A DNA stretch of 64,000 bases from Deltaproteobacteria bacterium (GTDB taxonomy: Bacteria; Desulfobacterota; Binatia; UBA9968): the NCBI GenBank assembly GCA_005879605.1, contig VBKE01000001.1, positions 53,067-117,066 on the forward strand, given 5' to 3'. The stretch's first letter is position 1; each line of letters starts with the position of its first letter. Under the pieces are notes generated by a model that saw only the letters and a program-made list of their open reading frames with translations, was not told the origin of the DNA and made no database searches. The position numbers and the translations under genes are program-made. Positions 43,941 to 60,010 of this stretch are shown piece after piece.

Positions 43941-43982
43941 ACAGGGCAACCACACAGGGCAACCACAGAGGGTTGCCCCTAC
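43941..43982 (-). repeat. GTAG-type REP palindrome with a 13-bp tandem duplication
   Basis: Minus strand GTAG-GGGCAACC-CTCTGT-GGTTGCCC; ACAGGGCAACCAC duplicated at 43941 and 43954. Confidence 0.65.
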
Positions 43983-46261: not shown

Positions 46262-46277
46262 TTGGATCGCTCCTTCC

Positions 46278-46742
46278 TCAAACCGTCTGGCCCGACGCGC
46301 GCTTCACCGCACGCAAGATGCGCGTGTGGGTGCCGCAGCGGCAGAGATTGCCCGCCAGCGCCTCTTTGATCTGGCTGTCCGTCGGCTTGGGATTCTTATC
46401 CAATAGCGCCTTCGCCGTCATGATCATGCCGTTGATGCAGTAGCCGCACTGCAGCGCCTGTTCGTCGATGAAAGCTTTCTGGATAGGATGGAGTTTCTTC
46501 GTTGATCCAAGACCTTCGAGGGTGGTCACTGGATGGTTGCTTGCAGCTTTGACCGGCGTCACGCAGGAACGAATGGCGTTGCCGTCCATGATGACGGTGC
46601 AGGAGCCACACTGCGCCAAACCGCAGCCGAATTTCGGCCCATTGAGCTTCAAATCGTCCCGCAAAACGTAGAGCAGGGGAGTTTCGGGATCGGTATCGAC
46701 GACCTGAGTTTTGCCGTTTACTTTGAGAGAAACTTTCGCCAT
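46278..46742 (-). CDS. (2Fe-2S)-binding small subunit (IorA-like), copy 2
   Basis: GCGLAQCGSC, QCGYC, NLCRCG; GAGGAGG RBS. Confidence 0.93.
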   Translation of the reverse strand: MAKVSLKVNGKTQVVDTDPETPLLYVLRDDLKLNGPKFGCGLAQCGSCTVIMDGNAIRSCVTPVKAASNHPVTTLEGLGSTKKLHPIQKAFIDEQALQCGYCINGMIMTAKALLDKNPKPTDSQIKEALAGNLCRCGTHTRILRAVKRASGQTV

Positions 46743-46923
46743 TGCGGCCTCCTCTCCGATTTAGATGGGCAGAGCTAGATTAGCTGGGCTGTTCCATGTC
46801 TATGGATATAGACGATAAATTTTTAAGTCAAGGCACGCTAACGAGCGGTGACACAGTAAAAGCGCGGAGCTTTGATCCTCAAATAAGAACCCAGGAAGTG
46901 AGTCATGGTTGGAGCGGCAAGCG

Positions 46924-48684
46924 CTAGTTGACCGCCGAGCTTTCGTGATCGGGTGCGAGCGTGTCTTTTCGGTTGGAAAAGACGACGTCGTAAGCGTTTT
47001 GGGCTACCAGATACAATTTTCGGTCGGCTTGGGCGCGCAATTTGGCGTACGTAGCTCTGTCGGTTAGCGCGTAAATGGATTGCGGACTATTCCACTTTTG
47101 CCAGAACGCCTTATCATCATCAGCCCGCTTGTTTAATTCTTCCTCCCAGAGTTCGAAAGGCTCTACCCAACCGACCTGCGTCACGTGACGCTGCAGATAA
47201 AGAGGCAGATCTTGGTAATAGGCATGGTAACTCGCCACCTCATCGTTAGGCTGCAGCCAAGGCTTGATGGTGAGGGCGAGGTCCTTGACGGAGCGGCGCT
47301 GGTCAAAGATCGGCAAGCTGCTGTTGAGGACGACCAAGAAAAAAGCGGCGGTCAGTCCCAATGCGGAAAACGCTGCCGGAATATTTCGTTTGCCCAGAAA
47401 GCTCGTTGCCAGCGCGCCGGACAGCAAAATCGCGCTTTGCGCTATCATGTAGGGGCTTAACTTCATCAAATCGGGATAGAAATTCAAAGACGTAGACGGG
47501 ATCGTTGCTTCGTCCATGGGAACTTCGAGATCGGGCCAGTTCGAATACCGTTCCAGATAGTGCTGAGGCCCTCTTACGCCAAGCAGTAAGAGCACCAACA
47601 CAGCGCATAAAAGGCACAAGCAGCCGCCACGCAAGCCAGGGAGCTGAGGGTGGTTCCATGCCCCCGAGAAGTATCGACCGATCAATATGGCCAGCGGCGG
47701 GAACATGGGCAGTATGTAGGGAATAACTTTCGAACTGGAGAGAGAGAAAAACAGGAATACCCAGCCCGCCCAAAGCGCTAGAAAAATTGCTTCTTTGTGG
47801 CCGTGACGGGGGCGCCAGGAAGGGAAGAGGCTGTATCTTATGGCTTGATATAAGAACACCGTCCAGGGGAATAATCCTATGAACAAAACGGGTACAAAGG
47901 TCCACGGATGGTCGAGTGGGCCGTTCTTATAGAGAAACCGTTGAAAGTGCTCCCGAATGAAATAGAAATCGAGAAACTCCGGATTGATTTTGGCAACGAG
48001 AACGTGCCAAGGAGCAGCTATCGTGAGGAAGAGAACGAGACCAGAAGGGAGATACAGGTTTCTTAAAACGTTCCGTTCGCTAACAACCAGTATCCAAGTG
48101 CCGATGACGAGACTGGGAATAACGATTCCGATCAGACCCTTCTCCAGGACCGCCAAGGCTGCGAACACAAAAAAAGCCCACATGGCAGAGCGGCGCTTGA
48201 GTCCCGGCGGCTCGCGCGTGCCCAGTAAGAAAGAAATCAACGCGCAAGTTAGCAAGGTCGATAACCCCGTATCGAGATCGGCGACCCGGCTCATCGCGTA
48301 GTACAGCCCGGAAGTAGCCAGCACGACGGAAGCGAGCAGGGCGGTTCTGCGCCCGAATAGCTTCCTTCCGCCCGCATAAACCGCAAGACAACCGAGCAAG
48401 GCGAACATGGCGGGCCAAAGACGCAGCGACCATTCGTTCAAACCGAAGGCTTTTATCGATGCGCTCTGTAACCAATAAAATAGCGGCGGTTTCTCAAAGA
48501 ACTTGATGCCGTCGAGGCGCGGCGTGATGTAATCCCCGGTGACAACCATTTCCCTCGCGACTTCGGAATACCGGCCTTCATCCGGGGACCACAGCGCGCG
48601 CTCGCCGAGCTTGAAGCCAAAGAAAGACCCAAGCAAGAGAGTCAAAACCAACAGATCGCGGAACCAGTCACCACTCTTTAACAT
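46924..48684 (-). CDS. ArnT-like glycosyltransferase family 39 (lipid-carrier-dependent), copy 1
   Basis: PDEGRYSEVAREM..GDYITPRL, FFEKPPLFYW, WSLRL, KGLIG, EHFQRF, SKVIPYILP. Start 48684 (or 48729) overlaps the desaturase stop. Confidence 0.9.
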   Translation of the reverse strand: MLKSGDWFRDLLVLTLLLGSFFGFKLGERALWSPDEGRYSEVAREMVVTGDYITPRLDGIKFFEKPPLFYWLQSASIKAFGLNEWSLRLWPAMFALLGCLAVYAGGRKLFGRRTALLASVVLATSGLYYAMSRVADLDTGLSTLLTCALISFLLGTREPPGLKRRSAMWAFFVFAALAVLEKGLIGIVIPSLVIGTWILVVSERNVLRNLYLPSGLVLFLTIAAPWHVLVAKINPEFLDFYFIREHFQRFLYKNGPLDHPWTFVPVLFIGLFPWTVFLYQAIRYSLFPSWRPRHGHKEAIFLALWAGWVFLFFSLSSSKVIPYILPMFPPLAILIGRYFSGAWNHPQLPGLRGGCLCLLCAVLVLLLLGVRGPQHYLERYSNWPDLEVPMDEATIPSTSLNFYPDLMKLSPYMIAQSAILLSGALATSFLGKRNIPAAFSALGLTAAFFLVVLNSSLPIFDQRRSVKDLALTIKPWLQPNDEVASYHAYYQDLPLYLQRHVTQVGWVEPFELWEEELNKRADDDKAFWQKWNSPQSIYALTDRATYAKLRAQADRKLYLVAQNAYDVVFSNRKDTLAPDHESSAVN

Positions 48685-49705
48685 TGTCTGGTATCGATGT
48701 CGGTTCCGAAAGAGTTTTACGCCGAGCATTGCTACCGATAGCGGCGGGCAGTGCCGCGTCCGACAAAGCTATGGGACCGGAGAGCTGGTCTAGCGCAGCT
48801 GAAAAAAAGCCGCGATCGAACGTCTCCGACTGTTGGGCAAAGAAATCTGGAAGCTTTATCCAAGGAACCGCTGGATTGGCGTGGTGAACGCGATGCAAAT
48901 TGAAATGTAGAACGAGCCGAGAAAACATCCTGGGCAAGAAAAGATTATGACCGGAGACCGTGACCTGCACGGGAGTTCTGTAGTGATACACATTGTCCAG
49001 AAAAGAGATGAGAAAGGTTCGGACCATTAACAAGCTTATGAAAAGTCTCCAATGCGTCCCGAAACAAAACGCACTCAGAACGAAGATAAGACAAATCGCC
49101 ATGCCATCGGCCCGAACCTGTCGAACTATTTGGTCGTCCATAAATTTTTTCGCCAGCCATTTTTCCTGAATGTTGCCCTGGTCGAGAAGACGCTGTCGCA
49201 TCTTACGGAAAATATTTGACGGTAAGAAAAATATGAATGTGGAGGCGACCTCCAATAGGTAAAGGCCGCAAAATATGTAAAAGAAGTATCTGAAACTGGC
49301 TTTGGCTCTTGAAGCCTTTGCCGGATCGTATATCTCGGTCCCCCTTTCCATGGGTGACCGGTTGAACTTATGGTGGGACAGGTGGGTCAGCCGCAAAACA
49401 TGGAAAGGCGAGCCGAAAAAAATCGAGAGCAATCTTCCGAAAGCCAAATTAATTCTGCCAGAGGAATTGAACAAGTCGTGGATTGCTTCGTGAAGGAGCG
49501 CCCAGAAAGGGTTGTTCAAGCACGCAATGGGGATAAGAGACACGCCCCACCAAATACTTTTCGGCAACAGATAAAGCGGCAGAATAAAAAATTGAAAGAG
49601 GTTCAAGAAAATACACAGCCCCGCAAGGCTGTAATTAAAAACGTCGGGTATCAAGAGTTTTGCAGCTCGCGTTGGAGAAGAGAAGGAAACTGGCAAGTTG
49701 GACAT
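48668..49705 (-). CDS. Membrane fatty acid desaturase family protein
   Basis: Three His boxes HEAIH, HLSHH, HRVHH plus TM segments. ATG 49705 preferred because the track's extension runs through the promoter cassette. Confidence 0.85.
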   Translation of the reverse strand: MSNLPVSFSSPTRAAKLLIPDVFNYSLAGLCIFLNLFQFFILPLYLLPKSIWWGVSLIPIACLNNPFWALLHEAIHDLFNSSGRINLAFGRLLSIFFGSPFHVLRLTHLSHHKFNRSPMERGTEIYDPAKASRAKASFRYFFYIFCGLYLLEVASTFIFFLPSNIFRKMRQRLLDQGNIQEKWLAKKFMDDQIVRQVRADGMAICLIFVLSAFCFGTHWRLFISLLMVRTFLISFLDNVYHYRTPVQVTVSGHNLFLPRMFSRLVLHFNLHRVHHANPAVPWIKLPDFFAQQSETFDRGFFSAALDQLSGPIALSDAALPAAIGSNARRKTLSEPTSIPDNVKEW

Positions 49706-49801
49706 GTAGATCGCTCTCTCACAAACCGCTTCACGTTGTTCCATTGTCATCTTGATTGGGCTCTGTTTGTGGAAATATGCGCCATTCACGAGCGTCGCGA
49801 T

Positions 49802-49907
49802 GTTTACGCTAGCGCATGTATGCTTCGCGCTCAATTTTTGAAGCAGATTCAGAAGGGCCAATCACGATGAAATAAAGGGCTATTATCTTCTAGCCCTTAA
49901 GAGCTAT
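49802..49907 (-). promoter_or_regulatory. Duplicated promoter cassette, copy 1 (desaturase-ArnT operon)
   Basis: Minus strand: TAGCTCT-TA-AGGGCTA, TAGCCCT, TGGCCCT heptamers, then TTGAGC-17bp-TAGCGT; 93/106 identical to 55426-55531 by manual alignment. Confidence 0.8.
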
Positions 49908-50112
49908 TGGCTTCGAACACATCCCTCTCTTCCTCTAAGTCGCCGTGGTGCTCGGGTCCGCACGTTCACGAAAGTCGTCCTCATCGCGGGCACCTGCAGA
50001 TGAACGCGCTATTTTACATTCGCAGTCGAGATTTTTCCTGCAAATATTTTGCGCTAAGACCACGACGGCGAGAAAAGAAATGATATCATGGGTTAGGCCT
50101 AGATATTTCAAA

Positions 50113-50889
50113 ATGCTCCTGGACCCCTCTCGCAGTTCTGTCGCCATAGTGTTGATTTTTCGCGTTGCCTTGCTCGGTGCGCTTTCGTTAGCGACGCAAT
50201 CTGCGGTCTCTGCTTCTCCCGCCGGAGACGAACCTTCACCCGTAGAATCGAAAGAACACCAAAGTGCGGCGGTTCGACACTTCAGGCGCTCAATCGCGAG
50301 AATGCAGCCGTTGATAAAGCGCTATGGGTACTGGGCTGCAGCAGGGGCGACGTTGGTAGAGGGGATGGGAATCCCCGCGCCCGGCCAAACCCTTCTCATA
50401 GCGGGGGCTTTCGAGGCTGCCCGCGGGCGGATGAACATCGCGCTGCTCCTGCTCCTTGTGACTGGCGGCGCTCTAGTAGGCAACAGCCTCGGTTATGTGA
50501 TAGGCCGTTGGGCTGGCCGAGCCGCGCTGCACAAGCTCAAGGTCAACCCGCAGCGACAGCAGTACCTCGATGACCTTTTCAAGCGCCGTGGCGGCCCGAT
50601 CATCCTGTTGGCGCGCTTTGTCGATGGGTTACGGCAGTTGAACGGGATAATCTCGGGCGTGATGAAGATGCCGTGGTGGACCTTCACGGCGTACAACGTT
50701 GGCGGGGCGCTCCTATGGACTTTCGCCTGGGGGCTCGGAACTTACTATTTGGGTCGGGACATTCGCTTCATTGCAGCTTTTTTCCATCGGCACCGCGCGT
50801 TCTTTTTCGCACTGAGCGTGACCGCTTTGCTCGCTTTGTTGGTCTACTTTTTTTCGCCCAAGAATAGGGCGTTAAACGAAGATGCATAG
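50113..50889 (+). CDS. DedA family membrane protein
   Basis: RYGY...VEGMGIPAPGQTLLIAG, GNSLGYVIGR, ARFVDGLRQ, FTAYNVGGALLW; start uncertain. Confidence 0.88.
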   Translation: MLLDPSRSSVAIVLIFRVALLGALSLATQSAVSASPAGDEPSPVESKEHQSAAVRHFRRSIARMQPLIKRYGYWAAAGATLVEGMGIPAPGQTLLIAGAFEAARGRMNIALLLLLVTGGALVGNSLGYVIGRWAGRAALHKLKVNPQRQQYLDDLFKRRGGPIILLARFVDGLRQLNGIISGVMKMPWWTFTAYNVGGALLWTFAWGLGTYYLGRDIRFIAAFFHRHRAFFFALSVTALLALLVYFFSPKNRALNEDA

Positions 50890-51014
50890 GCGCCAGGTTC
50901 GAAAGTAACGACTCTCGGCAACACCTTATTGCTTTCAAAAGCGAACGACGATTTTTGGTAACAAGAAAACTGCTAGCGTGAAGCAGCGGTTCAGTTGACA
51001 CCGACGCTTTTCAC

Positions 51015-51119
51015 TCATGATTGCAGTATCGAATGTATCATACCCCAAGCGGCATAAAGGACTGTAAGCCCAACTACAAGCCAAACCACGACCTTAAACC
51101 AAAATGGCATATCTCCCAT
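51015..51119 (-). CDS. 34-aa single-pass membrane peptide (not in the ORF track)
   Basis: MGDMPFWFKVVVWLVVGLTVLYAAWGMIHSILQS*; purine-rich GAGATAGGGA upstream; co-oriented 98 bp downstream of the TVP38 gene. Confidence 0.6.
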   Translation of the reverse strand: MGDMPFWFKVVVWLVVGLTVLYAAWGMIHSILQS

Positions 51120-51217
51120 GCTTTAATCCCTATCTCGTCTCAACGTTTCAGAAGCGAAGGACGCAAAAGTGCCCGGTAATCTAGTCTCTTGGAACCTCTC
51201 ACTGGTAAACCAAATCA

Positions 51218-51934
51218 TCACTCATGCCGGATCGTTCTCAACCAGTGAACGAAACGGTCTTTACACAGGTAGCCGACAAATAGAAGGACCGCACAAAGAA
51301 CGGCAATTATCGCTGCGGTCGGGTAATCTTGTTTTCTAATGCTCACCCCTTGGATTGTAAGCAGGTATGTCCCGGGCATGCGACCCAACGTGGATACAAT
51401 CAAGAAGATGCTGAGCTTCATTCCCGTGAGGCCTAGGACATAACACAAAATGTCCTTTGGAAAACCGGGCAAGAGAAAAAGCAAGAAGCAGATTACTTCT
51501 CCTGTGTTCGTCGAGAGGAAGTTAAATTTGTCCAGAATGTCCTTCCTAATAAATCTCTCAACAAACGGTCTTCCCAAGATATCGGCAATCTCGAAAGCCG
51601 CCCACGAACCGAGCGTGAGTCCCAAGCTTGAGAAAAGAAACCCAAACGACACCCCATAAAGGTAGCCGCCCACTACGCCGGTCAACTCTCCCGGTATCGG
51701 CGAGATAATCACCTGTAACGCTTGCAACAAGATAAACATGGCAGAAGAATAGGGCCCCAGGGAAACAAGGAATCGGGCCAGCCTTCTTCTCCTCGTGAAT
51801 AACTTCCCAATTGTTTCAGCCGGTCCCATAACACTAAGTGGTTGTGGTCCGTAACGGCTCGAGAAGAAAATCAGTGCAATGAGCAGGACAAGAATCGTCC
51901 CTTTGATGAGAATCTTGCGTTGCTTGGTGGTCAT
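51218..51934 (-). CDS. TVP38/TMEM64 (DedA superfamily, SNARE-associated) protein
   Basis: FILLQALQVIISPIPGELTGVVGGYLYG, FLLPGFPKDILCY, GRMPGT; ATG 51934. Confidence 0.9.
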   Translation of the reverse strand: MTTKQRKILIKGTILVLLIALIFFSSRYGPQPLSVMGPAETIGKLFTRRRRLARFLVSLGPYSSAMFILLQALQVIISPIPGELTGVVGGYLYGVSFGFLFSSLGLTLGSWAAFEIADILGRPFVERFIRKDILDKFNFLSTNTGEVICFLLFLLPGFPKDILCYVLGLTGMKLSIFLIVSTLGRMPGTYLLTIQGVSIRKQDYPTAAIIAVLCAVLLFVGYLCKDRFVHWLRTIRHE

Positions 51935-52103
51935 GACTAGAGACCGAAAGAAAAATGCATCAACAGCGAGAGGAAATGACGAGCGCGCGGCATAGTCTTT
52001 CGAAGCAACTAACACCGATTACCGATGAGTTTGGGTGATTTTAAATTCGCCAAGTAATGCTTGGACCGCGGGTTGGTTATCTAGTTAAGCGCGGTGGAGC
52101 AAA

Positions 52104-52313
52104 TCACTCGATCGCCTTTCCGTCGGTTTTATGTTGAGACGCTTGAGGTGGTGCTTTGGGATCGGGTTCCTCGCCCTCGAGTTCCTTCTTGAATCCCCGT
52201 ATTGCCTCTCCGAGCCCCTTGCCAAGCTCCGGCAGTTTCTTCGGGCCAAAAACAACCAGCGCAACTAGAAAAATAACTATGAGGTGGAGAGGCTGAAAAA
52301 GACCTTCAAACAT
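52104..52313 (-). CDS. tatA: Twin-arginine translocase subunit TatA/E
   Basis: HLIVIFLVALVVFGPKKLPELGKGLGEAIRGFKK. Confidence 0.93.
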   Translation of the reverse strand: MFEGLFQPLHLIVIFLVALVVFGPKKLPELGKGLGEAIRGFKKELEGEEPDPKAPPQASQHKTDGKAIE

Positions 52314-52334
52314 AACGATTCTTCCGCGAGTTTG

Positions 52335-54116
52335 TCAGCGCAGTCGTATAGATGAGTTGTCTGTTTCGGCGCGGCAGCGATTTGACACCAGAACAAAATC
52401 ATCAAAGCTCGTGAGCCTCCTAGGAACTGCACCGACTTCCTTGGTCAGCCGGGGCAGGTTTTTTTCTTTCAGGAAGATCCGCAGCGGCAGTTCATTTTTG
52501 CCGCACTGAGCAGCGAACTCCTCAAAGGTAAAAAGGACCTGGCCGTAACCGGCGGCCGGAGCTGGACGCTTCTCCGCTACATAAAAACTGCCCATTATGT
52601 TTCCCTTCTCCGGTGACTGTACGAGCCAGATCGGTTTGTCAATCCGCAGATAGAACAGCAGCCCCTCGATATAAGTGTCGTAAAATACCAGACGGTCCGG
52701 ACGATCTATCAAAGCAGCCGTTGCCTGCGCGGTTGACTTTGCCGCACGACGGAACGAAGCTCTTGCCACAATCTGCCCGGCCAAAATGAAAAAGAGAGCA
52801 AGGCTGACGGCAGTACACATGAAAGCCGCGCCCTGGCCTTTCCAAACACTCTTTAGATCACCGGCTACAAAAACTCCAAAAACGAGGGAGATAATAGTCC
52901 CGTACAACAGAAGCAGCGAAACGCTCTGAGGCACGTCGGATCTAATATCTCTCGCCAAGAGATTCGGCCACGCCGCCCCCACAAGAAGATAGACAATGAA
53001 GGCGACTATAAAAATTCCAGGAATGTAGAGTATCCTCGATCGCTTCGGGTCTTGCATTTTAGCGGCCACGGCTTGCCCCGTTAGGATCGCCAGGGCCGGA
53101 TAAATGGGCAAGATATAATGCGGTAGCTTAGCATTCGATGCTGAAAAAAAAGCAAAAGGTAGGATCACCCACAGGGTCAAAAGAAGATTCGCACCGGTGA
53201 ACGTTCGATTCCACAGGTTTTTCGCCGTGACGGGTATGAAAAAACTCCAGGGTAAAAACCCGATTCCTAAAACCAAGAAAAAGTAATACCAGGTCTTGGT
53301 GCGGCTGAAATGCGGTGTCAGGTAGCGAACAAAATGCTCTTCCCACAAAAAGTACCGTAGGTAGCCCGGATTTCTCGACTCTACCCATAAATACCAAGGC
53401 GCAACGACAGCAAAGTAGACAATGGTCCCTAGGAGGATATTGAGTCGCCTCAGCAAAAACCATTTACCTGTAAGCAACAGATAAAAGAAAATGACCGCAC
53501 CCGGGATAACCAATGCGATCGGTCCCTTCACAAGCGTCCCGGCTCCCATCGCCGCATACATAAGGAGACAATGTCTTTTCCCGGCTCTCGGATCGTCGGT
53601 CTGTGTGACCGCATAAAATGAAAAAAGCGCCAAAGAGATGAACAAGGTCAAGGTCATGTCAAAGATCACAATCCGTGAGAATAAGAAGAACTCAAGGCTT
53701 GTGATCAAGACCAAAGAGCTCCACAAGCCCTCCTGCAATCCCCATTGAAGTCGAGCAAATCGGTAAACCAGAAAAATGCAACCAAGGCCTGCCAATGCGG
53801 ATGGCAATCGAGCCGACCATTCCGACAGACCGAATAGCTTGAAAGAAATCGCCACTAACCAATAGAAAAAAATGGGCTTATCTAGAGTTGGCAGGAAATT
53901 TTGATAGGGTGTCACCCAGTCGCCTAACAATAGAATCTCCCGCGCTTTCTCCGCGTTTCTACCTTCATCCGGCTCGAACAAAGCTGAGCTGCCCAGGCTG
54001 CTAAAGACGATAACCAGGCATACTAAACAAACCAGCCAAAACCAGCTTCGTTCCCCGATGCCGCTCACGCGGTTCTGACTGGCTATTGATTGCGAGATAT
54101 TGCTCTGATCGATCAT
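52335..54116 (-). CDS. ArnT-like glycosyltransferase family 39, copy 2
   Basis: EPDEGRNAEKAREI..GDWVTP, DKPIFFYW, EWSARLPSAL, TLVKGPI, EEHFVRY, AKLPHYILP; ATG 54116. Confidence 0.9.
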   Translation of the reverse strand: MIDQSNISQSIASQNRVSGIGERSWFWLVCLVCLVIVFSSLGSSALFEPDEGRNAEKAREILLLGDWVTPYQNFLPTLDKPIFFYWLVAISFKLFGLSEWSARLPSALAGLGCIFLVYRFARLQWGLQEGLWSSLVLITSLEFFLFSRIVIFDMTLTLFISLALFSFYAVTQTDDPRAGKRHCLLMYAAMGAGTLVKGPIALVIPGAVIFFYLLLTGKWFLLRRLNILLGTIVYFAVVAPWYLWVESRNPGYLRYFLWEEHFVRYLTPHFSRTKTWYYFFLVLGIGFLPWSFFIPVTAKNLWNRTFTGANLLLTLWVILPFAFFSASNAKLPHYILPIYPALAILTGQAVAAKMQDPKRSRILYIPGIFIVAFIVYLLVGAAWPNLLARDIRSDVPQSVSLLLLYGTIISLVFGVFVAGDLKSVWKGQGAAFMCTAVSLALFFILAGQIVARASFRRAAKSTAQATAALIDRPDRLVFYDTYIEGLLFYLRIDKPIWLVQSPEKGNIMGSFYVAEKRPAPAAGYGQVLFTFEEFAAQCGKNELPLRIFLKEKNLPRLTKEVGAVPRRLTSFDDFVLVSNRCRAETDNSSIRLR

Positions 54117-54154
54117 GGGGAAATTTTGAGTCGCTTTAATTCCCCGAACGACTT

Positions 54155-55264
54155 TTATTCTTCGGTTGTAAAGTAGAAAAATCCGATCATCGCGAAAATG
54201 GTATTGGGAATCCACGCGGCGATAGAGGCGGGCAGTGCTCCGCTATGGCCCAGGGAAATGCACAAGGCTGTCAGCACCCAATAACCGAAGCCGACAACCA
54301 TGGCAGCGCCAAAACTCAATGCGAGCCCCGCGCTCATTTGCTTCTTCAGCGCGAAAGGCGTCGCCAAGAGCACCATCAAAGGCGAGATAAATGGCAGCGC
54401 CAATTTTGTCTGGAGATCGACCTCGTCTGATGTCGTATCCATGCCCTTAGCCTTCATTTCAGAGATCTGTCTCTGTAGGTCGAAGAAGGTGAATTCTTCA
54501 GGGTCACGCGCCAGTAGCTTCAGATCATCTGGAGTGTTTGAAATGGTCGGCAAGTCAGTATCCTTTCGCCTAACCATTTTACCGTCTGCCAAGATATTCC
54601 ATCCCGTCGCTTCTTTGGCCTCCCATTCATGACCATTCCACCGAGCGCTCGGAACCTCTACGAGACCTCGCAGGCTGAAATCTCGATTGAGCAAAAAAAC
54701 GGTGACGTGCTCAAGGACATTTGTTCGGGTATCGAAATTGCCGATGTTTATAAAGCTACCCTGCGCGCGTAGCCATATTTCGCGAGTTCCAAAAAGACTT
54801 TGCTGTTGCTTTTTTTGGATTTCTACTTTGTAAATGGCTTGGGCGCGATGAGCGAAGATCGGCACGAGAGCTTCGTTCCAGAAAAACGTAAACAAACAAA
54901 TAAACATAGAAAGTATCAAGAGAGGTAAAGCGATTCTCTGGACGCTGATCCCGCTTGAGCGCATGGCGGTAATTTCGTTCGTTCGCGCTGCCATACCCAA
55001 ACAGAACAGAGTCGAAAACAGCGTGGCGAATCCGATCACGCGAGAAATCGAGAGCGGAGCGTTGTAAATAAAATAGCGAATCACGGTCCAAACCGGGATT
55101 GCATTGTCGAGAAAATTAGTGATCCGATCGAAAAAATCGACGACGATATACAATGATGTTGTAACCAGGAGACTGGAAAAAAAGATCCGGAGAAATGCCC
55201 GAACTAAATAGCCGTCAATAATACTGCCCAAGGGGAGGTTTTTGATCCCTCCGCGCGTGTCCAT
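54155..55264 (-). CDS. lptG: LPS export ABC transporter permease LptG (LptF/LptG family)
   Basis: IDGYLVRAFL, NEITAMRSSGIS, KLALPF, SLGHSGALP..AAWIPN motifs. Confidence 0.85.
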   Translation of the reverse strand: MDTRGGIKNLPLGSIIDGYLVRAFLRIFFSSLLVTTSLYIVVDFFDRITNFLDNAIPVWTVIRYFIYNAPLSISRVIGFATLFSTLFCLGMAARTNEITAMRSSGISVQRIALPLLILSMFICLFTFFWNEALVPIFAHRAQAIYKVEIQKKQQQSLFGTREIWLRAQGSFINIGNFDTRTNVLEHVTVFLLNRDFSLRGLVEVPSARWNGHEWEAKEATGWNILADGKMVRRKDTDLPTISNTPDDLKLLARDPEEFTFFDLQRQISEMKAKGMDTTSDEVDLQTKLALPFISPLMVLLATPFALKKQMSAGLALSFGAAMVVGFGYWVLTALCISLGHSGALPASIAAWIPNTIFAMIGFFYFTTEE

Positions 55265-55425
55265 CGGCAACTCTCAGCTCTTGTTTCGAAGTCTAGCTAT
55301 ACATCGACCGGCCCAAGCCAGTCCGGTATCCAGCTTAGTTTGGAACATAGCGACGATCCCTGAGCGCCTTCGAAAAAAGGTGAGTCCCTATCACACAGGT
55401 AGAACCCCGCCTTGCAATCATCGGG

Positions 55426-55531
55426 GTTTACGGTAGCGCATTGATACTTCACGCTCAATTTTTGAAGCAGATTCAGAAGGGCTAATTACGAGGAAATAAA
55501 GGGCTAGAGTATTCTAGCCCTTTAGAGCTAT
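55426..55531 (-). promoter_or_regulatory. Duplicated promoter cassette, copy 2 (lptG-ArnT-tatA-TVP38 operon)
   Basis: Minus strand: TAGCTCT-AA-AGGGCTA, TAGCCCT, TAGCCCT, then TTGAGC-17bp-TACCGT. Confidence 0.8.
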
Positions 55532-55556
55532 CGCAACGGAGATGGTTCAGGCGGTC

Positions 55557-56225
55557 CTATTCGAGAGAGCTTTTCACGGTAACCAGGCCTTGCTGGATTG
55601 CCAGAGCGGCAGCCTGCACTCGGTTTTGGAGATGGAGTTTTGCGAGAATATTTTTGAGGTGATTCTTTACGGTGTTTTCCGCGATATCCAATCGGGTCCC
55701 GATTTCTTTGTTAGTGAGTCCCGCGGCCAACAGTTGGAGTACCTCTTTCTCCCGTTCCGTGAGGTCGGCCGCAGCGGTCGTTTGGGAATTTTTAGACGCC
55801 CTTGCGGCGAACTCTTTCAAAATTCTCGCGGCGGTCCCTTGAGAGAGGGGCGCTTCACCGCGAAACACGCCTTCCAGCAGTTCGCGCAGCTTCTCCGGCT
55901 CCACTTTTTTGGAAAGATAGCCGTGGGCTCCGCACTTGATCGCTTCAAACAGGTCCCTATCTTCCTCGGAGATCGTTAAGATGACCACGCGGGTTGCCGG
56001 CAATGTGCTGGTAATCTGACGAGTTGCCTCTAAGCCGTTGACGACGGGCATATGAATGTCCATCAACACGAGATCCGGCTTCCCGGCCTGGGCCCTTGCG
56101 ATCGCCTCTGCTCCGTTTTCAGCTTCGCCCATGATCTCGAAGCATTTTTCCTTTTCGAGGAGACTGGCCAAGCCCTTTCTGAAGAGAGTGTGGTCGTCAG
56201 CCAGCAGCACGCGAATGGTTTTCAT
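55557..56225 (-). CDS. NarL/LuxR-family DNA-binding response regulator
   Basis: VLLADDH, PDLVLMDIHMP, GAHGYLSK, LTEREKEVLQLLAAGLTNKEIG..TVKNHLKNILAKL. Confidence 0.95.
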   Translation of the reverse strand: MKTIRVLLADDHTLFRKGLASLLEKEKCFEIMGEAENGAEAIARAQAGKPDLVLMDIHMPVVNGLEATRQITSTLPATRVVILTISEEDRDLFEAIKCGAHGYLSKKVEPEKLRELLEGVFRGEAPLSQGTAARILKEFAARASKNSQTTAAADLTEREKEVLQLLAAGLTNKEIGTRLDIAENTVKNHLKNILAKLHLQNRVQAAALAIQQGLVTVKSSLE

Positions 56226-57729
56226 CGAATCCTTGCTGTGCCAGCGGGAGCCGGATGATCATTAGGCTTCCCCGTCCCGGGACGCTGTTAATGCCAAGTA
56301 TGCCGCCCACAGACTTGGCGCGATCTTTCATGGTCTCAAGGCCAAAGCGGAGACTTGTCTCCAAGGTTCTATCCGTGAAGAAACCCCTTCCGTCATCTTC
56401 GATGGTTATAGTGGCGGCGTCGTTGTCATTTTCTATCGTGATCTTCCCCTTCGTCGCCCGCGCGTGTTTAACGATGTTGGTCAAGGCCTCATGGATGATG
56501 CGGATCAACTGGATTTCTACTTGAGAAGAAAAATTGATCGTTTCGGGATGATCAACTTTGAGTTCCACGGGAATTTTTCTCACGTCGCTAAAATCCCTGA
56601 GATAATCGGCAAGGGCGGCGACGAGTCCGACGTGATTCTTCAGAGCGAGAGCGCGCAGGCCGAATATGGATTCGCGAAGGTTTTGATAGGCTTCGTCAAC
56701 GATCTGAAACAATTCCCTCAATAGGTTGTTGGTTTCAGTGGACGCGTTCCCGCCGAAGCTTCTTTCTGCCTCAATGAGTTTGATACGAAGGAAGGCTAAG
56801 TCCTGGGCGAGGCTGTCGTGAAGCTCACAGGCCAATCGTTCTCGCTCGTCTAAAATGGCCAGCCCCTTTTGTTTGTCTTGGTGTTCTTTTAACTGTCCGG
56901 CCATGCGATTGAAGGCGTGGCTCAAGAGACCGATCTCGTCCCTCGATGTAATGGGCATATTTTCGGGGACTTCTCCCTTTGCGATTTCGCTGGACCTTTC
57001 AGCGAGCTGACGGAGAGGGAGAGCAATCGCATGATGAAAGTAGCGTCTTGACGCCAGCAGAAAGACGGTGCCGATAAGAACCAATGCGACATTGAAACCT
57101 ATCGTCATTCTCATTTTTTGTCGGGTTTCCGAAACTAGCTGATCCTCGATTCTCTCGTGTTCCACGCTTATCCGATCAGTGAATCCTTGGATCCGCTGCT
57201 GTATCGCCTCCATCGCTTCCAGGGCGCGGGTATCCACGTCGCTACGCGATCGCTCGGGGCCATTCTGCGATTGGCCGACGATTCGCTCCGCGACCCGTTC
57301 GGCATCGGTAATCATTTGACGCATCTCTTGGATGTTTCGGTCGGATCCGCCGACGTTTTTGTAGAGCGTTAGCAGCGTTTCGAAATCTGTCATGGAAGTA
57401 CGTATCAGAGAACCGGGAATCGTTTTGTTTTGCAGTTGGGCCAGCTGGACCTGAGAAGTGAAATACTGTAATCGCCTATCTATTCGTTCTACGGTATGAA
57501 CCTGCTCGCTCTGTCTGGCTATAACGTCTGACTTGAGAAGGTGGGAGCTTAAAAGATACAGAGAGCTTCCTCCAACCAAAAGGACTAATATGAAAAGGGA
57601 AACAAAAACAAAGCTCAATCGGCGATCGATTCGCCCGGTGAACTCCGTTCGGGAGGAGTCATTTTGTGCTACACTTTGACTGTTTGCGCGATATGTGTTT
57701 GGGAATAAAAAGCCGGCCAAAGACGACAT
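56197..57729 (-). CDS. NarX-type (HisKA_3) sensor histidine kinase with HAMP domain
   Basis: Two TM helices around a helical periplasmic domain, RDEIGLLSHAFNRM HAMP, ERERLACELHDSLAQ H-box, EALTNIVKHA, IEDDGRGF, FGLETMKDRA. Confidence 0.93.
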   Translation of the reverse strand: MSSLAGFLFPNTYRANSQSVAQNDSSRTEFTGRIDRRLSFVFVSLFILVLLVGGSSLYLLSSHLLKSDVIARQSEQVHTVERIDRRLQYFTSQVQLAQLQNKTIPGSLIRTSMTDFETLLTLYKNVGGSDRNIQEMRQMITDAERVAERIVGQSQNGPERSRSDVDTRALEAMEAIQQRIQGFTDRISVEHERIEDQLVSETRQKMRMTIGFNVALVLIGTVFLLASRRYFHHAIALPLRQLAERSSEIAKGEVPENMPITSRDEIGLLSHAFNRMAGQLKEHQDKQKGLAILDERERLACELHDSLAQDLAFLRIKLIEAERSFGGNASTETNNLLRELFQIVDEAYQNLRESIFGLRALALKNHVGLVAALADYLRDFSDVRKIPVELKVDHPETINFSSQVEIQLIRIIHEALTNIVKHARATKGKITIENDNDAATITIEDDGRGFFTDRTLETSLRFGLETMKDRAKSVGGILGINSVPGRGSLMIIRLPLAQQGFDENHSRAAG

Positions 57730-57839
57730 CAGATTTCAACTATAGCATACGTAATCGGGCAATCTAGAGCATAGGTGATGGGTAAGAAGAGCCCAGGTTC
57801 CATCGTCTGGGACGAATTTCGAGTTTCATATCGAAGCTT

Positions 57840-58619
57840 TCATCGTGTGACGAGATTCCCCATGACTCTCCCGGCGAGGAGCGTCTGCATCCGGCGGGGA
57901 GTAAGCTTCAGAGCGTAGACCAACAATCGGTTATGCCAGCCCGGAATCGCAACCGGCTTCTTGCCAAGTTTTTTTAGTCCCAGTTCAACGACCGGTTGCA
58001 CCGACATGGCAGCGACAGCGGATGAACCCGCGATTTCATGGAATTCTGTGTCCGTGGAGCCGGGACAGAGCGCTAGGACGTCCACTCCATCCTTTTTTAG
58101 CTCGTAGCCCAGAGACTCGGCCAAAAAGAGTTCATAGACTTTGCTTGCGGCATAGCTAGCTTCAAAAGGAGTTGCAATGTACGCGCTTACCGAAGAGACG
58201 AAAATGATTCCCCCTCTTTTCCGCTGCGCCATTTGCCGCCCGAATACATGACTCAAAATCACGGGCGCGCGGCAGTTGACGTCCAGTAGGGCCAGCTCTT
58301 TTTCTAAATCATGCTCTAAAAATCTGCTCGCGACGCCGAAGCCGGCGTTGTTGATCAGCAGCCCCACATCGATGGATTCAGTTGCCGAAAGAATCAGCGG
58401 GAGGAAGTCAGGCTGGGACAAGTCGGCCGTGACGATGCGGAGTTGTATTTTGTGCCTGTTTTCTAACTCGCGCGCTAAATCTTCCATTCTCTGTCGACGT
58501 CGAGCGACCAGCACCAGATTTAAACCCATTTCCGACAACTGCCGGGCAAACTCTGTGCCGATACCCGCGGAAGCACCGGTTACGAGCGCCCACGGCCCAT
58601 AGCGGTCTCTAAATGTCAT
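57840..58619 (-). CDS. SDR family oxidoreductase
   Basis: YGPWALVTGASAGIG, LINNAG, YAASK, LCPGSTDTEF. Confidence 0.92.
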   Translation of the reverse strand: MTFRDRYGPWALVTGASAGIGTEFARQLSEMGLNLVLVARRRQRMEDLARELENRHKIQLRIVTADLSQPDFLPLILSATESIDVGLLINNAGFGVASRFLEHDLEKELALLDVNCRAPVILSHVFGRQMAQRKRGGIIFVSSVSAYIATPFEASYAASKVYELFLAESLGYELKKDGVDVLALCPGSTDTEFHEIAGSSAVAAMSVQPVVELGLKKLGKKPVAIPGWHNRLLVYALKLTPRRMQTLLAGRVMGNLVTR

Positions 58620-58765
58620 CGCCGGGAACTCCTTTCTTCGAGCAGTGTATCTCGGCGAAAATCGCGCGCATAGTCAATGGCAAAGATTTGCTGGCAAGTC
58701 CGCCTGGAAGATCAGAGACGGAACACTACGCCGAGAACGCCGAAAAATTATAGCGAGCGAATGAT

Positions 58766-60010
58766 TTATTCTCTGACAAAGAGCAACAACAGCATTCCCG
58801 CGACGTAGGTTGAGGCCGCGACATAGAAGGCCGACGTAAAGCCGTATTGATCCATCACGTAGCCGACGATCAAGGTCCAAACCGGCCCGGAAACGCAGCC
58901 CACGAAGTAATAAATCGAAAAGGCGGCGTCGGTTAACTCGTCCTTGGCAAAATCACTGATCATCGCTTGGGTCAGCGAGCTTCGGGCCTCAACCACGCTG
59001 CCGTAGAGAATGAGGTTCAGGTAAAGCAGCAGCCCTAGAGACGTTTGATGGGCAAGCCACACGCTCATGATGGCGGATAACAAGAGGGTGAATTGAGTTA
59101 TCAAAGCGCGCTTGTGGAAACGGTCCGAGAACCAGGCGATGGCGATGGGGCCGACCAAGCCGGCGCCCTGCAGCAGGGTCAAAAGCAATCCGCCCGCAGA
59201 CGCTGTGATGGCAAATCGTTCCATGAAGAAGGGCACGAGATAAGTGAGATTGATGCCGGTTCCACGCCCGGCAGCTCCCACCATTAAAACCAGCGATGTG
59301 AACAAAATATTGCGGTTTGTGAGACAAAGCCGGTAGGCGTTCAGGTTGGCTTTGAGATTGCCTTTGCGGCCGACTGAATCGTCGGGTGAAGCCTGATCGC
59401 GGAGCATGAACAGGGTCAGTCCCATAACCAGACTGGCGATTCCAAAAACCACAAATGCCGTTTTCCAGCTCATATAAAGGAGAGCCAGCGATGCCAGAGC
59501 GGGACCGATGAATGATCCGAAACTCCCTGCTGAATGATGGAACGTGAGCGCCCAGCCCCTGGCGTTCGGAAAATGGCGGGATAAGATGCTCGCGCCGAGC
59601 GGATGCTGCGGGCTCGAGCCGGCGTCGATCGCGACCCTTGCCGCCAATAGTTGAGGATAACTGCCGACGAAGAATTGCATCATAGTGGCAATCCCGACGA
59701 TCACGTTTCCGGTTCCAAGAACCGCGGTGCGCTTGAAGAAGCCGGTAAAAAATCCGTAGATGACTTGCAGCCCCTGTCCGACGAAGTTGGAGATAGCGGA
59801 GAGCGCTCCGAGCTGCAGCAATCCAAATCCCAGTTCCTTCATGACGACTGGAAAGATGACTGAAGTGATGCTGTACTGCAGATGGTTGAGCGTATGGCAG
59901 GCGCTGATGAGGCTGATGGCCATACGCTTTTGTTGCTCGGTCGCTTCGAGTGGCTGCGCGTCTATGGACGCGGCGGTGACAGCTGCGGCGGTGTTTTGCT
60001 GATCTTTCAC
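58766..60010 (-). CDS. MFS transporter (FsR-like)
   Basis: HTLNH, HPLGASIL, ARGWALTFH, SDRFHK; about 12 hydrophobic helices. Confidence 0.88.
   Translation of the reverse strand: MKDQQNTAAAVTAASIDAQPLEATEQQKRMAISLISACHTLNHLQYSITSVIFPVVMKELGFGLLQLGALSAISNFVGQGLQVIYGFFTGFFKRTAVLGTGNVIVGIATMMQFFVGSYPQLLAARVAIDAGSSPQHPLGASILSRHFPNARGWALTFHHSAGSFGSFIGPALASLALLYMSWKTAFVVFGIASLVMGLTLFMLRDQASPDDSVGRKGNLKANLNAYRLCLTNRNILFTSLVLMVGAAGRGTGINLTYLVPFFMERFAITASAGGLLLTLLQGAGLVGPIAIAWFSDRFHKRALITQFTLLLSAIMSVWLAHQTSLGLLLYLNLILYGSVVEARSSLTQAMISDFAKDELTDAAFSIYYFVGCVSGPVWTLIVGYVMDQYGFTSAFYVAASTYVAGMLLLLFVRE

Follow-up and report, generated by a model that had tools for sequence, protein, structure and literature searches.

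The 64,000-nt stretch of DNA analyzed here, hereafter the window, spans positions 53,067 to 117,066 of contig VBKE01000001.1 (assembly GCA_005879605.1), from an uncultured soil bacterium of the Binatia. It carries a two-component system and, beside it, two copies of a 106-nt element, which we call the cassette, each standing in front of genes with predicted roles in the cell envelope. Read along the minus strand, the locus consists of genes for a major facilitator superfamily (MFS) transporter, a short-chain dehydrogenase/reductase (SDR), a sensor histidine kinase, and a NarL-type response regulator, followed by cassette copy 2 and then by genes for an LptG-like permease, an ArnT-like glycosyltransferase (ArnT-like 2), and a DedA protein. 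The order continues with a convergent DedA gene on the plus strand, cassette copy 1, a fatty acid desaturase gene, a gene for a second ArnT-like glycosyltransferase (ArnT-like 1), and genes for a 2Fe-2S protein and molybdopterin oxidoreductase subunits (Table 1). A preliminary description, made from the sequence alone, had proposed that the cassettes are duplicated promoters controlled by the adjacent regulator; its gene descriptions around both cassettes agree with Pfam and NCBIfam assignments.

The two copies are ungapped direct repeats that agree at 93 of 106 positions (88%), and realignment gave the 13 mismatches that had been counted earlier. Their longest identical run is 31 nt. The 60-nt flanks on either side share 32% and 27% identity, the level of unrelated sequence, and the repeat is therefore a unit with sharp edges. 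The cassette is also far more alike than the genes behind it, since the two ArnT-like proteins share just 30% identity. A blastn search of the source assembly (6,585,279 bases in 581 contigs, 94% complete, 7% contamination) recovered the query itself (E = 1.1e-49), the other copy (E = 6.4e-32), and no third copy; the five further matches were 14 to 17 nt long, with E values of at least 3.9. A dispersed repeat, such as a repetitive extragenic palindrome or a miniature inverted-repeat transposable element, is thus ruled out, with two copies in the source genome and one or two per relative, nearly all of the latter adjoining the regulator gene. Occurrence at many unrelated loci had been named as grounds for abandoning the promoter proposal, and two copies in 6.6 Mb are not that.

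On the minus strand, both copies share one layout: A, heptamer H1 (TAGCTCT), 2 nt, H2 (AGGGCTA), 8 nt, H3 (TAGCCCT), 15 nt, H4 [T(G/A)GCCCT], 19 nt, TTGAGC-17-TA(G/C)CGT, and AAAC. Every motif named in the preliminary description was located in both copies, and each copy has the two inverted heptamers at a distance of 2 bp that characterize a NarL-type 7-2-7 operator. The 19-nt spacer between H4 and TTGAGC is identical in the two copies. In the window, TAGCYCT occurs 11 times versus 7.45 expected by chance; seven of the 11 occurrences lie inside the two copies (212 nt), and the four outside are within chance expectation.

The regulator encoded next to copy 2 has the domains of the NarL/FixJ type, with a LuxR-type helix-turn-helix (HTH). 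Its best NCBIfam model is that of NarL (NF007935), at 189.3 bits versus a cutoff of 250, which places it below the equivalog threshold. Its closest solved structure is also NarL (1A04; E = 6.8e-41), and the recognition helices are similar (TVKNHLKNIL here versus TVKVHVKHML in NarL). The kinase scores 150 bits against the NarQ model, far from the cutoff of 553 and short of a NarX/NarQ assignment, and its best stretch, residues 283 to 498, is the catalytic core. Besides a HAMP domain, it contains a sensor region that looks extracytoplasmic, and its N-terminal 230 residues match no Pfam family (best E = 0.09). Because the likeness to NarX/NarQ is confined to the catalytic core and the sensor belongs to no family, the system appears to work like NarXL without being NarXL.

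According to one study, the NarL output domain binds as a dimer and prefers inverted heptamers 2 bp apart (PMC4549865), in line with the earlier statement that NarL-family regulators bind 7-2-7 heptamers. The NarL consensus quoted with that statement, TACYYMT, does not occur in that study. An engineered NarL site printed there is TACCCCTAAAGGGGTA (TACCCCT-AA-AGGGGTA); copy 2 carries TAGCTCTAAAGGGCTA, and the consensus heptamer TAGCCCT differs from the engineered TACCCCT at position 3 alone (PMC4549865).

It is other genomes, rather than the way in which mismatches are distributed over the two copies, that best support reading the heptamers as binding sites. The comparison set for the family comprises 90 genomes, among which the source genome (G000) is the sole member of its genus. 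They are metagenome-assembled genomes (MAGs), 60 to 100% complete, related, and not independent of each other; co-occurrence counts are given as descriptions, with no statistical test. Four genomes flagged as unpublished (G019, G022, G040, and G060) enter the family tallies only as nonhits or chance hits. By blastn, only G009 shares the cassette, with 80% identity over the first 65 nt, which is the heptamer part, and this match directly follows the stop codon of a regulator gene whose product shares 88% identity with that of the window. A protein search with the regulator found 11 loci in nine other family genomes, at 56 to 88% identity, and heptamers lie past the regulator stop codon in all 10 loci that have downstream sequence. 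In G064b they are at a different spacing, and the regulator locus of G077 ends at a contig edge. In the relatives, TAGCYCY and AGRGCTA stand 2 nt apart; about 8 nt later comes TAGYYCT, continued by TWATWTC, and after a further 8 nt or so, TRGCYCT. In an alignment of 12 such arrays (11 from the family and one from a MAG of NC10), conservation is confined to the columns of the heptamers and of the TWATWTC block, with variable spacers between them. The heptamers of both copies in the window fit this cross-genome consensus with one change in 28 positions.

A model of the array built from sequence only (R1) found 13 sites with E values below 1e-5 in 10 of the 90 family genomes, and these are exactly the 10 genomes that encode an orthologue of the regulator. 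A single partial match (G030; E = 0.003) was found in the 80 family genomes without an orthologue, and none in 150 further genomes sampled from the class. This is the co-occurrence check that had been suggested with the original proposal, and its outcome agrees with that proposal. Ten of the 13 sites lie no more than 250 nt past the regulator gene; the other three are copy 1, a second G058 site, and the site in G077, whose regulator gene stands at the end of another contig. The G077 site (E = 6.8e-8) and the second G058 site (E = 2.7e-6) are also those that the model found independently. Given this co-occurrence and adjacency, the adjacent regulator is the obvious candidate to bind the array. 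A cruder scan with the 16-mer, allowing one mismatch, matched 29 of the 90 family genomes, but a reversed-pattern control matched equally often; among the matches inspected, that of G009 alone belongs to an array, and G011, although its match is exact, is an unrelated case.

Distant homologues of the regulator were sampled by scanning public genome contigs with the regulator alignment and keeping the best 80 of 601 stretches; the best named matches among those listed are MAGs of "Candidatus Binatia," NC10, Dehalococcoidia, and Anaerolineae. We took 49 of these loci and counted the palindrome TAGCCC-N4-GGGCTA, with up to two mismatches, within 470 nt around the end of the regulator gene. Six sites were found in four of the 49 loci versus about 0.6 expected (14 in the remaining 535 kb). 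These four loci belong to a Binatia MAG, NC10, and Chloroflexi and encode regulators of 48 to 60% identity; among the 49, no locus with a regulator below 48% identity has the palindrome around the gene end. In each of the two Chloroflexi loci, two palindromes stand one behind the other, the second directly adjoining T(G/A)GACG-17-TATAAT, an arrangement like that of an activator site beside a promoter. The heptamers first noticed in the window, therefore, travel with orthologues of the adjacent regulator across genera and, as the 7-2-7 palindrome, into other phyla. In sum, the comparative evidence speaks well for the prediction that two operons are headed by sites of the adjacent regulator.

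Table 1. Cassettes, motifs, and genes of the locus (positions of the window)
Feature	Position	Strand	Basis and remarks
Cassette copy 2	55426..55531	-	Starts 26 nt past the response regulator stop codon; upstream of the LptG-like gene; model R1, E = 2.0e-14
Cassette copy 1	49802..49907	-	Divergent intergenic region between the desaturase gene (-) and a DedA gene (+); model R1, E = 9.1e-13
H1+H2, copy 2, TAGCTCT-AA-AGGGCTA, 7-2-7 inverted pair	55515..55530	-	H1 55524-55530, H2 55515-55521; proposed high-affinity site for a regulator dimer; pair kept after regulator orthologues
H1+H2, copy 1, TAGCTCT-TA-AGGGCTA, 7-2-7 inverted pair	49891..49906	-	H1 49900-49906, H2 49891-49897; sequence
H3, copy 2, TAGCCCT	55500..55506	-	12-bp hairpin with H2, then TTATTTC; H3 and the following TWATWTC conserved
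H3, copy 1, TAGCCCT	49876..49882	-	Hairpin with H2 weaker than in copy 2
H4, copy 2, TAGCCCT	55478..55484	-	Sequence, array alignment
H4, copy 1, TGGCCCT	49854..49860	-	Sequence, array alignment
Putative promoter, copy 2, TTGAGC-17-TACCGT	55430..55458	-	TTGAGC 55453-55458, TACCGT 55430-55435
Putative promoter, copy 1, TTGAGC-17-TAGCGT	49806..49834	-	TTGAGC 49829-49834, TAGCGT 49806-49811
Response regulator, NarL/FixJ type (receiver + GerE HTH)	55557..56225	-	Pfam Response_reg 7.1e-30 (residues 6-117), GerE 4.1e-22 (residues 155-209)
Sensor histidine kinase (HAMP, HisKA_3, HATPase_c)	56197..57729	-	Pfam/NCBIfam; N-terminal sensor of ~230 aa without a family
LptG-like permease	54155..55270	-	First gene past copy 2; TIGR04408, 270.6 bits (cutoff 240); likely start ATG 55264
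ArnT-like glycosyltransferase 2 (PMT_2/PMT)	52335..54215	-	Pfam/NCBIfam; 30% identical to ArnT-like 1
DedA/VTT-domain protein	51218..52015	-	Pfam; same strand as the ArnT-like 2 gene
DedA/VTT-domain protein	49945..50889	+	Transcribed away from copy 1; candidate start, in-frame ATG 50080
Fatty acid desaturase	48668..49750	-	First gene past copy 1; likely start ATG 49750
ArnT-like glycosyltransferase 1	46924..48729	-	Overlaps the end of the desaturase gene; remnant at the same place in G044

The locus of a relative, G044, whose regulator is 75% identical, helps to explain how two copies came to stand here. Its order is MFS transporter, SDR, kinase, regulator, array, desaturase, a remnant of ArnT-like 1, 2Fe-2S protein, and molybdopterin subunit. 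The G044 desaturase is 64% identical to that of the window and has a frame break, and ArnT-like 1 is reduced to residues 14 to 89 (L150 4708-6020); the target genes of G044 appear to be decaying, in contrast to its intact kinase, regulator, and array. Gene order in the window is the same except for an extra 5.6 kb between the regulator and desaturase genes, which holds the genes for the LptG-like permease, ArnT-like 2, and two DedA proteins, and the two cassette copies are the exact boundaries of this segment. Because the desaturase orthologue directly follows the array in G044, the gene order points to the desaturase as the ancestral target and to regulator-array-desaturase as the ancestral arrangement. 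The module was either inserted here together with a copy of the promoter region or lost in G044 by recombination between repeats.

Three same-strand genes of the module have 65 to 70% identical twins elsewhere in the assembly. A second LptG is encoded on contig C126 in the canonical SpoU-lptF-lptG order (C126:85693-88077; L181 2194-4578; 65 to 70% identity), whereas almost all of the other family genomes have a single LptG match. The LptG-like protein of the window is full length and stands alone without lptF; that of C126 fits the Pfam profile only to position 280 of 353, and its C terminus diverges. The twin of ArnT-like 2 lies at a contig edge (C560:6-1700; 70% identical), and that of the minus-strand DedA protein lies at C139:9664-10377 (68% identical). 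The twins may have arisen by duplication, may have been acquired from a relative, or may belong to a second organism in the bin; with 7% contamination, the last of these could hold for some of them.

Soil metagenomes bear on the reality of the arrangement. The window is found at 85 to 96% of sampled words in 20 soil DNA runs from 16 studies. Contigs were examined from four soil runs, of which X2, X4, and X13 cover the whole stretch and X20 leaves most of the module uncovered. In X2, X4, and X13, which come from three studies, contigs break at the 31-mer shared by the two copies. In X2 and X4, this 31-mer forms a unitig of its own at about double depth (22 versus 8.7 to 10.2 in X4; 15 versus 5.3 to 9.4 in X2), and an X4 contig of 5,650 nt connects the two copies, with the shared 31-mer at either end. 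Since both copies recur in soil runs, they are not an assembly artifact of this bin. Because the contigs break at the 31-mer, an integrated module looks the same as a circle plus an uninterrupted chromosome, and deletions between the repeats are not visible. One X13 contig tracks the window to position 55506 and then diverges with another 7-2-7-like palindrome, TGGCCCCAACGGGCTA (plus strand), and so a related population carries a variant array.

In the closest clade, the genes behind the arrays are the desaturase (G044 and copy 1 of G000), a PAP2 phosphatase next after the array (G009), and the LptG/ArnT-like/DedA set (copy 2 of G000), and these targets are coherent. From their family assignments, we infer that the desaturase, the two ArnT-family transferases, the DedA proteins, LptG, and the PAP2 phosphatase all act on membrane lipids or lipopolysaccharide (LPS), and the likely role of the system is envelope remodeling upon a signal. 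In other genera, with orthologues at about 56 to 64% identity, the arrays precede genes for small receiver-like, cytochrome c, cupredoxin-like, and iron-sulfur proteins, so that it is only in the closest clade (G000, G009, and G044) that the arrays have lipid and envelope targets. Separately, in a sister clade of regulators (about 52 to 62% identity; Binatia, NC10, and Chloroflexi), a gene for a conserved protein of about 125 residues follows the array (L065, L047, L048, L192, and L071 to L075); this protein is weakly receiver-like (Pfam E value of about 1e-4), and a cytochrome c gene often comes next. In G009, the orthologous kinase extends over three reading frames and the SDR is in three pieces (L010 10731-12255 and 12356-13126), which may be due to frameshifts or to assembly indel errors.

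Downstream of the heptamers, TTGAGC-17-TA(G/C)CGT is a possible weak promoter whose position is inferred. If transcription started a few bases past it, the sites would center near -100 (H1/H2), -80 (H3), and -58 (H4), suiting activation from upstream. Two other candidates were rejected: a sigma-54 promoter in the H4 region, judged by eye, has an unfit GG/GC spacing and lacks the GG in copy 2, and the conserved TWATWTC after H3 has no -35 element at a workable distance from which it could serve as a -10 box.

We consider it probable that the two copies are activator-dependent promoter regions, each with four heptamers for the adjacent NarL-type regulator, through which both gene sets are switched on. 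In the mechanism that we propose, the neighboring kinase would phosphorylate the regulator, which would bind as dimers to the 7-2-7 pair H1/H2 and to H3 and H4 in direct orientation, at sites (consensus TAGCYCT) spaced about two helical turns apart. The bound regulator would then recruit RNA polymerase to the weak putative promoter and so turn on the desaturase and ArnT-like 1 genes from copy 1 and the genes for the LptG paralogue, ArnT-like 2, and possibly DedA from copy 2. A 320-nt gap (52015-52335) lies between ArnT-like 2 and the minus-strand DedA open reading frame, for which a separate promoter or a later start is therefore possible. Copy 1 might also act on the divergent dedA gene, as the preliminary description suggested. 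With the 5.6-kb envelope module placed between the regulator's array and the desaturase gene and one copy at each boundary, the old and the new target would each keep a regulator-responsive promoter. The inverted pair H2/H3 of copy 2 would probably also end transcription of the kinase and regulator genes.

Several observations weigh against this activator-site reading. The putative -35 and -10 elements match the consensus at seven of 12 positions and are absent from the list of a promoter scan, which omitted them because the -10 part matches at only three of six; G009 has five extra bases between the -35-like and -10-like parts, and no counterpart is recognizable in G044. The promoter named in the preliminary description is present as a sequence in both copies of the window, and its spacing is not conserved in these relatives. 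Likewise, the earlier remark that mismatches cluster in the spacers holds as a description, since 11 of the 13 fall outside the heptamers and hexamers (40 "functional" positions of 106); as an argument for selection, it does not carry on this pair alone, for which the clustering is suggestive only (hypergeometric P = 0.066; heptamers alone, P = 0.09), and the 88% identity could stem from recent copying rather than constraint. Most matches of the array model are sequences from which it was built and hold by construction, and the co-occurrence counts rest on incomplete, related assemblies. Only two sites are present in the source genome, with no wider regulon behind the motif: the degenerate palindrome with up to one mismatch gave 69 matches versus 196 for a reversed control, and the four exact matches are the two cassettes plus C139:9198 and C360:31387, where we estimate about six by chance. 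The regulon that was to be readable from the sequence, therefore, amounts to just these two sites. Finally, H2/H3 followed by TTATTTC resembles an intrinsic terminator, the H2/H3 hairpin is the minimum-free-energy fold in seven of the 12 arrays, and two double compensatory A-U changes (G044 and G074) and three G-U pairs are compatible with an RNA in the direction of the regulator gene.

This last group of observations raises the question of whether the conserved element is mainly an RNA or terminator that ends the kinase-regulator operon, with copy 1 a carried-along duplicate without a regulatory role. In copy 2, H2 and H3 form a strong hairpin, at -18.8 kcal/mol and z = -5.1, that none of 200 shuffles equaled and that begins about 35 nt past the regulator stop codon; that of copy 1 (-12.1 kcal/mol; z = -1.9) appears in a scan for terminator-like structures (49898-49875). 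Covariation across the 12 arrays, however, does not exceed that of shuffles: pairing extends to 90.6% of cells for H2:H3 versus 89.6% in shuffles (136 of 500 as high) and to 87.3% for H1:H2 versus 86.4% (199 of 500 as high). As pairing is no higher than column composition gives, it is the sequence and not an RNA structure that is conserved, as would fit protein binding sites. Moreover, H1, H4, and TWATWTC are conserved although they lie outside the hairpin; the arrays of G002, G071, and NC10 lack it; and in G058, the regulator gene is followed by a separate hairpin, and the array, in which H2 and H3 do not pair, comes some 200 nt later. Three sites, namely, copy 1, the second one of G058, and a weak one in G064c, are located between divergent genes, with no same-strand gene to terminate, and the tail in many relatives is TTAATATC, a poor U-tract. 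We therefore regard a purely terminator function as improbable, although H2/H3 of copy 2 may also terminate the kinase-regulator operon. No Rfam 15 family matched either cassette at E values of up to 1 in a search over positions 44000 to 60000. It is comparably hard to credit that the repeat is a neutral scar of a recent arrival of the module, with only the regulator-side copy functional, if either. Consistent with a scar, the copies exactly bound a segment absent from the syntenic locus of G044, the flanks beyond 106 nt are unrelated, the clustering of mismatches is not significant, and the twins of the three same-strand module genes suggest late acquisition or duplication. Yet the repeat takes in everything between the first heptamer and a point 4 nt beyond the proposed -10 element, which is what a promoter needs; without copy 1, the desaturase gene would have lost its regulator-linked upstream region; and the near-perfect fit of both copies' heptamers to the consensus and the recurrence of the arrangement, with its doubled depth at the shared 31-mer, in runs of three studies speak for more than a scar.

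Less probable still is that the heptamers bind another regulator or that the adjacent regulator represses. The assembly encodes further NarL-type regulators (33 to 38% identical), and NarL itself is a repressor at some promoters (PMC4549865). Against another regulator stand the co-occurrence of array and orthologue and the 10 of 13 sites that physically adjoin the regulator gene, and against repression the position of the sites upstream of the -35 element and the weak -10 element, which, given the putative promoter position, suit activation. A further reading, which we deem unlikely but somewhat less so than these alternatives, is that the cassette provided homology for capture of the module by a single crossover between regulator-responsive promoters and that the LptG paralogue is a conditional isoform that accepts modified lipid. 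A circular intermediate would be possible, and after the crossover the module would be flanked by directly repeated cassettes. If this were true, remodeling of lipid A or LPS would also swap a subunit of the LPS transporter for one accepting the modified lipid, a natural counterpart of the lptG suppressor of Burkholderia described below.

Returning to the proposal of an activator-dependent switch, its parts have counterparts in known systems. Like NarL and NarP of Escherichia coli, the regulator combines a receiver domain with a GerE HTH and has a HisKA_3-type partner kinase, and its inverted heptamers at a 2-bp distance are accompanied by single heptamers upstream of a promoter, here putative. 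The targets, in contrast, are membrane lipid and envelope genes and not those of nitrate respiration, and the host is a soil bacterium whose best named relatives, among the matches listed, are MAGs of "Candidatus Binatia." In Bacillus subtilis, DesK-DesR controls the desaturase gene des, and here, too, a HisKA_3 kinase and a NarL-family regulator are encoded beside a fatty acid desaturase, the proposed target. DesR (4LDZ; E = 1.2e-25) is among the solved-structure matches of the regulator, although a more distant one than NarL, VraR, or DevR. DesK senses through its membrane helices, whereas the kinase of the window combines a HAMP domain with a sensor of extracytoplasmic appearance.

For the ArnT-like proteins, the nearest parallels lie in the modification of lipid A. 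BvgA is a NarL/FixJ-type regulator, and Marr et al. reportedly described in 2008 an ArnT orthologue in Bordetella that is activated by BvgAS and modifies lipid A with glucosamine. The likeness is that a two-component system controls an ArnT-family lipid A transferase, as proposed here; orthology with the ArnT-like proteins of the window is not indicated. The regulators of PmrAB and PhoPQ belong to the OmpR family, whereas that of the window is of the NarL family with putative heptamer sites. Control of arnT and dedA by PmrAB/PhoPQ, together with the ArnT-LptG connection in Burkholderia, resembles the proposal that ArnT-like, DedA, and LptG proteins are here under one signal. A DedA protein is needed for modification of lipid A with 4-amino-4-deoxy-L-arabinose in Burkholderia thailandensis (PMC7835334), and arnT mutants of Burkholderia cenocepacia are viable only with an lptG suppressor (D31H) that permits export of unmodified LPS (PMC5377068). 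An LptG paralogue within the regulated operon, as proposed here, is not known from those systems.

We see this locus as an ordinary kind of gene switch in which the duplication shows how further genes can come under an existing regulator, and the known working of NarL-type regulators is unchanged by our findings. The analysis yields a testable motif (TAGCYCT, as a 7-2-7 pair plus two single heptamers) and two putative target operons for a two-component system of Binatia-like soil bacteria; a narrow literature search on this subject found no paper that names Binatia or two-component systems in its title or abstract. It also offers a natural example of regulon growth by promoter copying in which the ancestral arrangement is still visible in a relative, G044. 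Two aspects add modest interest, namely, the promoter duplication that bounds an inserted module and the LptG paralogue under the proposed control of an ArnT-like transferase's switch, which raises the question of whether LPS export is adapted to modified LPS. The terminator-like H2/H3 hairpin and the boundaries of the 5.6-kb module were absent from the preliminary description.

Some smaller observations concern the surroundings. The pair of 2Fe-2S and molybdopterin oxidoreductase genes (43982-46742) is duplicated in tandem downstream (C502:94079-96844; 76% and 63% identical), and in G044, three to four of these pairs follow one another. A lone TAGCTCT lies at 46771-46777, 29 nt upstream of the 2Fe-2S subunit gene (46278-46742). 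At C139:9198-9213 (L182 2199-2214), a perfect 7-2-7 palindrome, TAGCTCTAAAGAGCTA, without H3 or H4, is one of the exact matches whose number is within chance genome-wide; it is intergenic between an SH3-domain gene and a ComEA-like (HHH_3) gene, beside the DedA twin.

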